39,992 nt of DNA. Origin: Promethearchaeota archaeon. Its GTDB lineage: Archaea > Asgardarchaeota > Lokiarchaeia > Sigyniarchaeales > SOKP01. Positions 5,470 through 18,091 of the stretch are shown here, piece after piece. The position numbers and the translations under genes were made by a program. The stretch is from NCBI GenBank assembly GCA_016840085.1, contig JAEOTA010000021.1, positions 1 through 39,992 on the forward strand, in the 5' to 3' direction. Positions within the stretch are counted from its first letter, which is position 1; every line of letters starts with the position of its first letter. The notes under the pieces were generated by a model. It saw nothing but the letters and a program-made list of their open reading frames with translations. It had not been told where the DNA came from and did no database searches.

Positions 5470-6678
5470 TTATCTATTACACTTTTTACTTTTTGGATCT
5501 CGTAATATAAATACACCCTTCTCTATATCATCTAAACATATTACATTTTGACCAAAACATAAGAAGCAGGGCGCCGCTCTTGCTTTCTGGCAATTAATAC
5601 AATAATCCTCTTGTTTATATTCTTTATTAATAGGTTCTTTGATTCTATTGTTGGAAATACTATTATACAATTTTTCATTCTTGTGGATTTTAGGTTTCTC
5701 AAATTGCAGTAGCGTTAAATTTTCTTGGCGAGGTGTTAAAGAGGCTTCTTTTTCTGTTAAAATTTGGACATATTTATTTTTATCTTTATTATCAATATGT
5801 TCAGTTTCTTTATGAGGTATATTAAGAGTTGGTTTTCCTACATTTGTTCTATGTTTACCATTTTTCTCTGAAGGTTTCGTAGAGACTGGAGATAGGTTTC
5901 TTAATTTTTTCTTTATTACTTGGTTATTTTCTATTTTTCTTAATTCCTCTAATAGTTGGTTTTGTGTTATTTTTCCTCTTTTTAAGGACTCAATTGTCTT
6001 AGAACTAAACTTATTATCAAGTAGTGCTTCTCCTATACGTGCTTTAACATACATGGTTCTTCTTGCTAATCCTAAAATCTCATGGTAGGTTTCTACAAAC
6101 GAATTTGTGTTATTGGTATGTGATGGAACTATAAGTGCATTTGATGCACTTATGAGTTTGTGATCTTGATTTTTAACTGAGGAACGTATGTATTTTCCTT
6201 TTTTTGTCTCTGGATGATCTTTTTCATGTAATCTTTTAAAACGAGCAATCCCTATATAAGACTCATAATCGTTAAAGTCTTTTCTACAAAAATTCTCCTC
6301 TAATTCTAATTCTAGTGCTTCTTTTTCTGTAAGATCATCCAATATGGCTGAGATTTTTTCCCAACCGAGCTCAACAGCTATACAAAAGCGATAAAATCCC
6401 TCAACCAATTCATTATTCTTGTTCAGAGAAATTGGATTCCTTAAACCAAATTTAATCATTGATTTTTTTAATGCTATGTAGGTTGGTTCCTTTCTAAAAT
6501 CACCGAATTCCTGTCTAACTCTATTCTGTGGATTTACTTTTACATCAACAACTCTGACCTGTCTAATTATTAGATTTTTCTTAGGATACGACTGATATTG
6601 ATTGTTCTCTTTTCTCTCACTTTTAAAATCTTTCACTTCTCTGTCCATCTTTTCTCTTAATTTTGTAGTTATTTTCAT
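5470..6678 (-). CDS. ParB/Srx-like N-terminal domain protein with HTH region and C-terminal Cys cluster
   Basis: LKKSMIKFGLRNPISL...LVEGFYRF...LELEENFCRKDF matches ParB/Spo0J motifs; C-terminal CINC...CFLC. Confidence 0.75.
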   Translation of the reverse strand: MKITTKLREKMDREVKDFKSERKENNQYQSYPKKNLIIRQVRVVDVKVNPQNRVRQEFGDFRKEPTYIALKKSMIKFGLRNPISLNKNNELVEGFYRFCIAVELGWEKISAILDDLTEKEALELELEENFCRKDFNDYESYIGIARFKRLHEKDHPETKKGKYIRSSVKNQDHKLISASNALIVPSHTNNTNSFVETYHEILGLARRTMYVKARIGEALLDNKFSSKTIESLKRGKITQNQLLEELRKIENNQVIKKKLRNLSPVSTKPSEKNGKHRTNVGKPTLNIPHKETEHIDNKDKNKYVQILTEKEASLTPRQENLTLLQFEKPKIHKNEKLYNSISNNRIKEPINKEYKQEDYCINCQKARAAPCFLCFGQNVICLDDIEKGVFILRDPKSKKCNR

Positions 6679-6774
6679 GGGTTAAAAATTACTTTCTTAA
6701 TCCTTTTTTATATACTTATAAGTATTTATGTAGCACACCATATATTAATGATAAGCAATACATATAAACTTTCA

Positions 6775-6807
6775 TACTATACCTGTATAGTAAATATATA
6801 GTATTTT
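6775..6807. promoter_or_regulatory. Palindromic 33-bp element, copy 1 (putative RHH operator/promoter)
   Basis: TACTATAC-CT-GTATAGTA followed by AATATATAGTATTTT; 32/33 identical to 13008-13040. Confidence 0.65.
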
Positions 6808-6821
6808 CAAAACCAAGAATT

Positions 6822-7190
6822 TTAATCAAGATTATTATTAACTCCATTAATATCTATATCTTTTATCCTCTCTGGGATGTTCTCGTCAGTTTTTTCCTGA
6901 GCTAATTGGGCCATTTGATAATTAAGCCTAATCAATTCTTTTGCAATTTTTCGCGTCCCATCAATAACCGCTTCAGAATGGCTTCGATAAACCTCTCTTG
7001 GTTCGCTAAAATTAAGATTCATCTCTACAGGAGCACTTGGAATTTCAAGTTCTTTATATACTTGGGTAATTAAAATTTGCTGGAAATAAGTAGGAAAAAA
7101 AATTAGTAATAAAACTACAATAAATAAAGTAGGTTTAAGCATTATCTTTAATTTAGTCCACCTTCTTGGAAAAGAGGGCCAATCTTTCAT
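6822..7190 (-). pseudogene. Chimeric ORF: N-terminus of a membrane/secreted protein joined to the C-terminal half of an RHH paralog
   Basis: YRSHSEAVIDGTRKIAKELIRLNYQMAQLAQE is near-identical to 13079..13306; the N-terminus is an unrelated hydrophobic segment. Confidence 0.65.
6895..6991. repeat. Diverged direct repeat of ~13128-13224 (RHH coding segment)
   Basis: Near-identical DNA with mostly synonymous differences. Confidence 0.85.
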
Positions 7191-12991: not shown

Positions 12992-13007
12992 TATATTTAA
13001 ATTTTAT

Positions 13008-13040
13008 TACTATATCTGTATAGTAAATATATAGTATTTT
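13008..13040. promoter_or_regulatory. Palindromic 33-bp element, copy 2
   Basis: TACTATA-TCTG-TATAGTA followed by AATATATAGTATTTT, just downstream of the RHH gene. Confidence 0.65.
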
Positions 13041-13078: not shown

Positions 13079-13306
13079 TTACTTTTTAAATTTTTTTATG
13101 TCCTTTGGGGTATCTACTTCAGTGTCTTCTTGAGCTAATTGGGTCATTTGATAATTGAGCCGTATCAATTCTTTAGCAATTTTTCGCGTCCCATCAATAA
13201 CTGCCTCAGAATGAGAGCGATAGAAATCTTTACCGTATTTTAGTATCAGATTTATTAATCTTTCAGGAATCTGCACACTTCTATACTCTTTTTTTGCTTT
13301 TGTCAA
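13079..13306 (-). CDS. Ribbon-helix-helix (CopG/Arc/MetJ-like) DNA-binding protein
   Basis: YRSVQIPERL beta strand plus helix, then FYRSHSEAVIDGTRK, a typical archaeal RHH pattern. Confidence 0.7.
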   Translation of the reverse strand: MTKAKKEYRSVQIPERLINLILKYGKDFYRSHSEAVIDGTRKIAKELIRLNYQMTQLAQEDTEVDTPKDIKKFKK

Positions 13307-16290: not shown

Positions 16291-17016
16291 TTACATCATT
16301 ACCTCTTCAGCAACATGTTCAATGATATTTGATATTAGAAACTTGTTTAGATCTTCTTGAAAGTCATTATCAACTAACACATTGAGATATTTGACCAAGA
16401 GTAACAGTCTGCAGAGGATGGACATGCCAAAATTTTTTAAGTTGAACTCAACTGAATCTTCCCTACTCTTTACAAGCTCCAAAAGTTTAGTATCTTTTAT
16501 TGTATCTTTAAACCCTTCAAAAGAATCTATAAATAATCGTTTGTCCTTCTTGTGAGAAAGCTTGGAGGTAATAGTAGTAGTGTCTTTTACTTTGACTGGT
16601 GTTATTTCTTGTTTTCTTTTATTTGTAGCAATTACCTTTTTAAAATCCTCTTCAGAATTGTGTTGCATCTCTAAAAAAGTAAATGAGCAGTCCAGATGAA
16701 TTTCTATTTTCCGTCCGTGTATGCAAAAAAACATAAGAGAAATAATATTTATCTGACACTCATCAGGATTGAGAAGTGAATCTACAGGAAATGAGAGTAT
16801 GAAATATTGGGTTCCCATAAATTCTAGATTATTCTTACGTATTCGATAGATTTCTTCTACGCATTTCTCCGGATCGGATATTAACCCGATCTTATATCTT
16901 ATTGTGGTATGTTTTACAAAATCAGAAGCTATGTTTTCAATCTCTGTAGCGTCCGTTTTGTAACAACATACCTTAATGTTCTTAAATGAACTAAATAATA
17001 TACTTACAATTTTCAT
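16291..17016 (-). CDS. Hypothetical protein, first gene of the AEP operon
   Basis: 241-aa ORF whose stop is 1 nt from the AEP start. Confidence 0.65.
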   Translation of the reverse strand: MKIVSILFSSFKNIKVCCYKTDATEIENIASDFVKHTTIRYKIGLISDPEKCVEEIYRIRKNNLEFMGTQYFILSFPVDSLLNPDECQINIISLMFFCIHGRKIEIHLDCSFTFLEMQHNSEEDFKKVIATNKRKQEITPVKVKDTTTITSKLSHKKDKRLFIDSFEGFKDTIKDTKLLELVKSREDSVEFNLKNFGMSILCRLLLLVKYLNVLVDNDFQEDLNKFLISNIIEHVAEEVMM

Positions 17017-17187
17017 TTTTCCGATTCTTAGCCAATTAAATTAAATACATCCCCTATTCTGATCTTAAGTTTATAAACTCCGAGACTTTGTGAAATTCAT
17101 ATTTTTTTAAATTCCTAACAAAATAAGAGGCGAAAGCAAAAAATAAAGAAATTTGAGATATATTAAATGAAACGTAAAGGAAAAGGA

Positions 17188-17259
17188 TGGGGGGTATTTC
17201 AATATTAAGAAATATTAATTCCGGCTAAGAATCGGATTACCATCCGAAAAATACCCCCC
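17188..17259 (-). ncRNA. Putative ~72-nt structured small RNA or leader
   Basis: Closing stem GGGGGGUAUUU/AAAUACCCCCC, internal hairpins UCGGAU-GGUA-AUCCGA and UAAUAUU-UCUU-AAUAUUG, upstream TTTTTATATA (17284-17275), downstream pyrimidine tract. Confidence 0.5.
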
Positions 17260-17470
17260 ATATATAGAAACAACTATATAAAAAGCTAACTTAATATTTC
17301 CTCCCGTTATAGTATTGAAGTTTATAATAAAATGGCGAATTTGAAATAAGTATATGTAAATGTTATATAATTATGATATAATTATACTATTAGTATTTAA
17401 AGTCCTATAGAAATCTAAATTAAAAATTTTCTACTAACATGTAAAACTTTGTGTAGTGTAAATTCTTACA

Positions 17471-18091
17471 CTAATTTGATAACTTTACAATGTCATCACA
17501 CATATCATCGATGTAAAATATGTTATTCTTTCCCACAACTTGTGTATATTTTTTAGAAAGGGCTTGCTCCCAACTATACACAAATACTTTCTTTCCCATT
17601 TTTATTACTCTTCTTACAGTGTCTACCAAATCTGAATCTCCACTTATTAGAGCTGCAATATCATACGCATCTTGCTCTGCCAAATTAATCATATCTTTAT
17701 GAATTTGCAGATCAATTAATCTTTGTCTCAGTGTTCCATTTGGACGTACCTGCAATTTAACGATCTCTGTGTGAAATCCTGCCGATTGCAGGTATCTTAC
17801 AAATCTGAACTTTTTTCGATATTGTGTGGTATATTTCTTTCGAGGGATTCCTAAATACGCAATTGGAACAACTAAATGATAATTCTGAGCAATAATTTCT
17901 TTAAATTTTATATAATCGATACGAATATTATATGGTATTATGGGATGAAATAAATTGGCATGATCGAGAAAAATAATCATTCTATCTTTGATAATCCCTG
18001 ATTTTTCGATATAAAACTGAACTGAGTTGTCGAAATTGTCATTATCAAAATTATTAGTTTTTAAATTATTATATTCCACTACTATAACCAC
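17471..18091 (-). CDS. NYN domain (LabA/DUF88, PIN-like) protein; start probably ATG ~17980
   Basis: IFLDHANL, QRLID, ALISGDSD and FYIDD motifs. Confidence 0.85.
   Translation of the reverse strand: MVIVVEYNNLKTNNFDNDNFDNSVQFYIEKSGIIKDRMIIFLDHANLFHPIIPYNIRIDYIKFKEIIAQNYHLVVPIAYLGIPRKKYTTQYRKKFRFVRYLQSAGFHTEIVKLQVRPNGTLRQRLIDLQIHKDMINLAEQDAYDIAALISGDSDLVDTVRRVIKMGKKVFVYSWEQALSKKYTQVVGKNNIFYIDDMCDDIVKLSN

Follow-up and report, generated by a model that had tools for sequence, protein, structure and literature searches.

The window, a 39,992-nt stretch of a Lokiarchaeia (Promethearchaeota) contig from a genome of 4.68 Mb, carries on its minus strand a gene cassette headed by orf241 and, in front of it, an intergenic region with a predicted small RNA gene (Table 1). 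The order of the cassette genes (orf241, an AEP-superfamily polymerase, an RNase_H_2-like protein and a putative RHH protein) is conserved, and a gap of 1 nt separates orf241 from the AEP gene. The cassette is followed by ParB-like, HTH and surface-protein genes, and is often preceded by an NYN nuclease gene. Across loci the neighbours include genes of a defence type (NYN, TIR, a faint Abi_C match and RNase III); at a single locus, the RNase III gene lies immediately 5' of the RNA gene (L060:3715-4548). The distribution of the cassette is patchy, with the AEP gene present in 17 of the 161 genomes of the class, and the AEP homologs formed 80 clusters among 1.84 billion representatives. A search of viral contigs for AEP relatives found none, and neither an integrase nor a tRNA gene was found beside RNA-bearing cassettes on their contigs or loci. 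A distant relative lies 3 kb from a tyrosine integrase, and in L160 (G127:C32 202241-211446) an NYN-like gene, a distant cassette, a ParB-like gene and a tyrosine integrase form a single block, which is the best evidence for an integrative nature of the cassette family. The cassette is thus a probable part of an integrated mobile element.

Table 1. Features of the cassette and its upstream region, in window coordinates
Feature	Position	Strand	Remarks
NYN-domain nuclease gene	17471-18091	-	PF01936, E 2.6e-14; recurs upstream of the cassette in 8 loci
Promoter 1	17394-17409	-	BRE-like purines and TATA (17401-17394); 17/17 loci, several invariant columns
Palindromic putative operator	17360-17390	.	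over the predicted promoter 1 start site; PWM built on 17 loci, with 17360-17379 as the best site of the window
Small RNA, ~200 nt, predicted	17175-17375	-	ends inferred from TATA spacing and U-tract
Shine-Dalgarno-like GGAG element	17295-17305	-	in the 5' domain; 7/10 SD match in the window
P1 5' arm, G-rich	17249-17261	-	pairs with 17199-17187
Extra hairpin over guide 5' end	17232-17247	-	locus-specific; an extra hairpin also here in L026 and L029
Guide (antisense segment)	17223-17236	-	P2 5' arm plus loop
P2 recognition hairpin	17219-17231	-	loop UAGCC 17227-17223; loop unpaired probability 1.0
UUCUURA-type motif	17205-17211	-	between P2 and P1 3' arm; four invariant alignment columns
P1 3' arm, C-rich	17187-17199	-	strain variant AA to GG stays paired as U-G
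CC and U-rich tail	17176-17186	-	candidate archaeal terminator; kept in homologs
Promoter 2, cassette mRNA	17070-17081	-	TATA 17077-17070; 17/17 loci, -59 to -78 from start codon
Target in 5' UTR	17020-17033	-	overlies the Shine-Dalgarno window
orf241, cassette head gene	16291-17016	-	N-terminal Ig/FN3-like beta sandwich, linker, C-terminal helices
AEP-superfamily polymerase, 764 aa	13995-16289	-	fold nearest LigD/Prim-PolC; catalytic motifs invariant
RNase_H_2-like exonuclease fold protein, 222 aa	13321-13989	-	first DxE invariant; Cys at last acidic position
Small putative RHH DNA-binding protein	13079-13306	-	assigned by sequence pattern; Pfam match absent
Second operator copy	13007-13026	.	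downstream of the RHH gene; score 15.7

Pfam and fold searches with the whole cassette proteins, rather than with single domains, returned AEP, Ig-like and RNase H-like folds. The polymerase belongs to the AEP superfamily by its DxD, SGxKGxH and third Asp motifs on an AEP fold, with D299, D301, S343, G344, G347, H349 and D449 invariant. Its model matched 6sa0_A best (Z 19.2, rmsd 3.1, 262 aligned), and the Z scores were 19.2-17.8 for Prim-PolC/LigD polymerases, 14.1-11.8 for replicative primases and 7.4 for RepB', so that the modelled fold is of the repair type and not of the plasmid-replicase type. An initial annotation of this DNA had spoken of a replication operon, a label that this fold does not support; the catalytic motifs are intact and a ParB-like gene is a neighbour, but no helicase was seen and no origin was identified at the cassette. 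The N-terminal domain of the polymerase is probably ferredoxin-like in the model (Z under 7, a weak match). For orf241 the fold searches gave generic Ig/FN3-like matches alone (Z up to 8.4), which barely covered the C-terminal part. Its N-terminal domain is shared with a chromosomal protein of ~320-400 aa in many genomes of the class, which in the window's genome is encoded 5' of a GPN-loop GTPase gene (L131:3724-4689; G000 C78) and has no Pfam family. The exonuclease family carries His-Asn-x-Asn-Cys at the expected last catalytic Asp, with the Cys invariant, and may be inactive or of altered chemistry.

The region upstream of orf241 was compared among 17 distinct homologous loci, which served as the training set, and three out-of-set loci (L068, L066 and L107), giving 20 copies. 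In the 17 loci the elements follow one another in a constant order: promoter 1, the palindrome, a GGAG-containing 5' domain, P1, P2, a UUCUURA-type motif, a CC-U-tract, promoter 2 and the UTR with the target. Promoter 1, positioned between -303 and -430, is predicted to drive the small RNA. The initial annotation had let the RNA begin near 17259 behind a TATA-like box at 17284-17275. This box exists and may give rise to a shorter form, but the box kept in all 17 loci is that of promoter 1; the RNA is therefore predicted to be longer than first proposed, and a 5' boundary near 17259 was not supported. The second TATA box that had been proposed to serve the mRNA is indeed conserved, and promoter 2 is followed by a UTR of ~35-55 nt, frequently with a 5' hairpin. 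A covariance model matched 17180-17264 with 50.3 bits, the window having belonged to its training set. Neither the window nor any of 8 homologous loci had an Rfam 15 match at the gathering threshold (top local match U54, E 0.23, far below it), so the Rfam check suggested initially returned no family. The RNA was also considered as a box C/D or H/ACA guide RNA, but the alignments lack invariant boxes and the guide is one unbroken stretch on a hairpin loop. In L009, the upstream region contains three spaced copies of the CCGATAAG motif around the orf241 homolog.

The Shine-Dalgarno-like element in the 5' domain matches the full SD at 8-9 of 10 positions in 8 of 16 loci, and no conserved ORF was found behind it. 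In one subclade (L005, L033, L035, L041, L045, L055 and L064) an AUG follows after 16-18 nt and opens a frame of 17-30 codons that runs through P1 and the guide. A leader peptide was rejected, being limited to this subclade and absent from the window. The GGAG element may pair with the 3' tail, which looked plausible in single folds, most clearly in L066, but this pairing showed no cognate preference (p 0.86). The UUCUURA-type motif is a candidate protein-binding site, judging from its conserved columns.

The minus-strand 72-mer folded with -29.1 kcal/mol (z -4.41). The closing stem P1 recognised in the initial annotation proved real, with 13 bp instead of 11. In place of the two internal hairpins described there, the minimum-energy fold contains three, and the one that had gone unnamed, P2, is the conserved hairpin that presents the guide. 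Two-sided changes occurred at 6 of the 7 modelled P1 pairs, above shuffle and slide controls, with the structure derived from the same alignment. One locus (L030:1-110) has an RNA gene without the P1 5' arm and with an inverted repeat in its place, close to the contig end; the lost arm may be an assembly artefact.

Read on the coding strand, P1 used 13 G-U against 4 A-C pairs, and a 98% identical strain carries three changes in the core, two from U-A to U-G in P1 and one from U-G to U-A in P2, which are tolerated solely on this strand. The G-U usage therefore places the RNA on the coding strand. The initial annotation had offered a hairpin origin recognised by the primase as an alternative. 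Such a DNA hairpin, acting as origin or primase-recognition site on single-stranded DNA, would suit the position directly upstream of the AEP gene and the strong inverted repeats, but it is highly improbable because of the G-U strand bias, the strain variants, which point to RNA and to one strand, and the guide-target covariation described below. Moreover, promoter and terminator motifs flank the structure, the loop sequence is variable, and the distance between guide and target ranges from 0.2 to 2.8 kb across homologs.

The exact 14-nt complementarity of guide and target, reported initially as ending 3 nt (17019-17017) before the ATG at 17016, was found as described. The 14-mer has just two sites in the genome, the guide and the target, and when the intergenic region was dinucleotide-shuffled, 4 of 1000 shuffles contained a distal inverted repeat of at least 14 nt. 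Among 3793 start regions of the genome, the cognate one ranked first for the guide, with -29.8 (mean -8.3, sd 3.2). Over the 17 loci, the duplex energy averaged -25.7 kcal/mol for cognate and -13.1 kcal/mol (sd 3.5) for non-cognate pairs, each target beat at least 499 of 500 of its own shuffles, and the cognate guide came out on top for 15 of the 17 targets, the two exceptions being near-identical sister guides. Permutation of the guide-target pairs never reached the observed value (0 of 200000), a figure that overstates independence because the loci are related and kinship inflates the statistic. Between related loci, two-sided changes in the seed helix were seen three times (L005/L033), twice (L003/L068) and four times (L035/L041), and the compensatory changes are distributed over several distinct branches in the tree of the AEP. 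The homologous loci thus keep both the fold and the compensatory complementarity to the start region, the comparison for which the initial annotation had called. Comparative support for the pairing and its covariation, which we take to be real and conserved, is strong. A further near-pairing noted initially, between the P1 3' arm and 17054-17043, is present in the window, but across homologs pairing of this arm with the 5' end of the UTR did not exceed that of non-cognate pairs (permutation p 0.09); judging from the TATA spacing, transcription from promoter 2 probably starts within this site. In the guide-target duplex, G-U and A-C were even (8 versus 8), for which reason pairing between two RNAs is not proven by this count, and pairing of the guide with DNA stays formally conceivable.

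In local folds of nearly all 19 loci, the guide occupies the 5' arm and loop of P2, the loop being GC-rich and 3-10 nt long. Contact between loop and target was assessed by opening-cost calculations, RNAcofold not modelling that contact, and net binding of the guide after these costs was favourable (-5.7 to -13.8). The duplex spans ~14-20 bp, frequently with mid-duplex bulges, and a YUNR loop motif is not conserved among the loci. The seed helices fall between -28 and -4, with the genome-wide SD peak at -18 to -7.

Guide and target share a strand and, in the window, are separated by 189 nt. This arrangement would also be expected if promoter 1 produced a single leader of ~360 nt whose P2 loop paired in cis with the start region, forming a pseudoknot or a switch, and in most loci the spacing is indeed fixed, with the guide ~200-240 nt before the start codon. 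However, in L068 the covariance model located the RNA 2.7 kb 5' of the cassette with an inserted 800-aa gene between them, and its best site in the 8.4-kb locus was its own UTR (-27.1), while the L066 guide pairs with its own UTR across 1.3 kb (-25.0); L107 provides a third out-of-sample guide-target pair. Two separate RNAs acting in trans are favoured because the pairing spans inserted genes, including one in opposite orientation, and because the second promoter is conserved, as is the U-tract between the two parts; the spacer is poorly conserved. A cis leader is therefore quite unlikely, and from the initial proposal of an antisense RNA or switchable leader the antisense RNA stands, its fold and covariation being kept, while the purely cis leader does not.

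Our main interpretation, to which we assign a probability of roughly 0.68, is that translation of the orf241-AEP-exonuclease-RHH cassette, part of a probable integrated mobile element, is repressed in trans by an antisense RNA that starts pairing through its loop. Transcription from promoter 1 would yield a stable RNA of ~200 nt, whose P2 loop would first meet a largely unpaired part of the short 5' UTR produced from promoter 2. From there pairing would proceed along the P2 5' arm to give a duplex of ~14-20 bp over the Shine-Dalgarno window, blocking docking of the 30S subunit on orf241 and probably, by virtue of the 1-nt spacing, on the AEP gene too. Guide and target would drift together, giving specificity groups comparable to incompatibility groups. 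Several observations count against this antisense mechanism: an SD motif is weak or absent in many UTRs; a bare antisense RNA would need neither the UUCUURA-type motif nor the SD-like element or the hairpins of the 5' domain; and the distant AEP clade does without this RNA, to the extent that the covariance model can detect it.

Further copies of the palindrome over promoter 1 lie downstream of the RHH gene, both in the window (at 13007 and 6774) and at 7 other loci. The palindrome is probably the operator of the RHH protein of the cassette. It does not define a host-wide regulon, since the genome contained 63 matches against ~100 in shuffles, which is no enrichment. Binding of the RHH protein to this operator would probably tie the RNA level to cassette expression: if the protein represses promoter 1, expression of the cassette would lower the level of its own repressor RNA, and the coupling would be switch-like. 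The copy at 6774 belongs to a stretch (5470-7190) with a second RHH paralog (59% identical) and a ParB_N gene, which is a duplicated cassette tail, other genes lying between the copies. On another contig of the window's genome (G000 C21, ~590-660), a truncated copy of promoter 1 and operator, closely resembling the start of an L002-type RNA gene, is joined to an unrelated gene fragment and represents the scar of a second element.

The RNA was confined to one AEP clade (100/97) and, among the genomes searched, to the genus of the window. The covariance model did not detect it in the distant AEP clade, nor did it give a match in other families or in a 150-genome sample of the phylum, but with only 7 pairs, and having missed L066 and L109, the model does not allow this to be read as absence outside the genus. 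A DNA search with the leader within the genus returned short AT-rich matches only. In three loci of the distant clade (L008, L020 and L021, of G127), another short conserved segment lies ~190 nt before the orf241 homologs and ends with CUUUU just 5' of promoter 2; its folds and UTR pairing were weak and inconsistent.

RNA genes without a detected AEP cassette occurred in four genomes (G080, G071, G070 and G067; 79-95% complete), the RNA persisted beside deleted or truncated cassettes at three loci (L109, L039 and L107), and once distant copies had been located no cassette of the RNA-bearing clade was shown to be RNA-less. Such solitary RNAs fit decay of an addiction-like module, retained immunity to incoming elements, or plain deletion bias. 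Within the antisense reading, they raise the possibility, which we hold only tentatively, of an addiction or defence system in which the cassette is toxic when translated and the RNA acts as an unstable, type I-like antitoxin; the repair-type rather than plasmid-replicase-type AEP fold and the defence-type neighbours would agree with this. On the other hand, the target is a 4-kb multi-gene enzyme cassette and no small peptide, ParB-like and RHH genes follow the cassette, a 200-nt gene is also simply a smaller target for deletion, and the assemblies are incomplete.

The restriction to one AEP clade, the conserved single-stranded motif and the multi-hairpin 5' domain could also be accounted for by an RNA that serves as scaffolded guide or cofactor of a ribonucleoprotein, with the AEP N-terminal domain, probably ferredoxin-like by its weak match, or orf241 binding the conserved motif. 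The variable guide would then lead the protein to its target, either the RNA of the UTR or the coding strand of the DNA past promoter 2, with silencing or primed synthesis as the outcome; a G-U bias of the duplex, not being significant, does not oppose this. The kissing-loop geometry and the mid-duplex bulges, however, suit protein-free RNA-RNA pairing, a conserved template sequence 5' of the guide is absent, the top start-region target of the guide genome-wide is its own cassette, and none of the cassette proteins was recognisable as Cas, TnpB or Argonaute-type. We consider this reading unlikely, and keep it open because the UUCUURA-type motif and the SD-like element, which has no conserved ORF, are unexplained. 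If anything less likely is its further-reaching form, in which nature would have made the guide re-programmable on a scaffold that is conserved and bound by one of these two proteins. The AEP would then work as an RNA-guided ribonucleoprotein without relation to CRISPR, TnpB or Argonaute, and self-targeting of the UTR would serve autoregulation or priming.

Returning to the antisense reading, several known control RNAs are comparable. RNA-OUT of IS10 is read from the opposite strand of its target gene, which makes the two complementary by default. The RNA-OUT loop base-pairs with the RNA-IN 5' tail, thereby blocking the ribosome binding site; as predicted in our case, a stable stem-loop starts pairing at an unstructured mRNA 5' region, and the initiating sequence sets specificity (PMC4737173). 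In contrast, the Asgard RNA lies on the same strand as its target, upstream and non-overlapping, in an archaeal host and with an AEP cassette instead of a transposase. Because the RNA is encoded in tandem without overlap, every change in guide or target needs a compensating one. In CopA/CopT of R1, Inc RNA of ColIb-P9 and RNA I of ColE1, a short GC-rich recognition loop is carried on a stem, divergent loops define specificity groups, and plasmid copy-number RNA modules include an RHH-type repressor; all three traits resemble those of the Lokiarchaeia locus. These plasmid RNAs are cis-encoded, match their targets over the full length and act on an established initiator or primer of replication, whereas the duplex described here has 14-20 bp with bulges, no conserved YUNR and no identified origin. 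Recognition by a hairpin loop, as predicted here in nearly all loci, and a target over the translation start are shared with the cis-encoded antisense class, but guide and target occupy the same strand, and the RNA falls outside these families because it does not overlap its target.

IstR-1/tisB, AgrB/dinQ and OrzO/zorO consist of a non-overlapping neighbouring sRNA with short complementarity to the 5' UTR, the same layout as that of our RNA and its target. Type I antitoxin RNAs are described as cis- or trans-encoded (PMC8309996). The present target is not a small hydrophobic toxin but a 241-aa beta-sandwich and helical protein heading an enzyme cassette, and for this reason the RNA is not a classic type I antitoxin. 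Among archaea, the Methanosarcina mazei intergenic sRNA154 and sRNA41 mask ribosome binding sites (PMC5867862); these are chromosomal regulators with several targets, whereas the Asgard RNA has one dedicated, linked and co-evolving target. The Asgard mobile elements known as Aloposons and Atabeyarchaeia MGEs carry ParB-like and CopG-type RHH genes (PMC11529989), and ParB-like and putative RHH genes are also found around the Lokiarchaeia cassette. A term search gave no mention of antisense or noncoding RNA in PMC11529989 and PMC8813620, and in the literature searched no Asgard archaeal element was described as having a dedicated antisense control RNA. The RNA is thus apparently an undescribed antisense control RNA with no Rfam family.

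Classic loop-initiated control RNAs lie opposite their targets, whereas the 20 natural guide-target pairs described here record a specificity change that takes two mutations. They would offer largely orthogonal repressor-target pairs for translation control in archaea, and the RNA would mark a hitherto undescribed class of Lokiarchaeia elements that encode an AEP. With it, RNA-based gene control could also be tested in the lineage nearest to eukaryotes.
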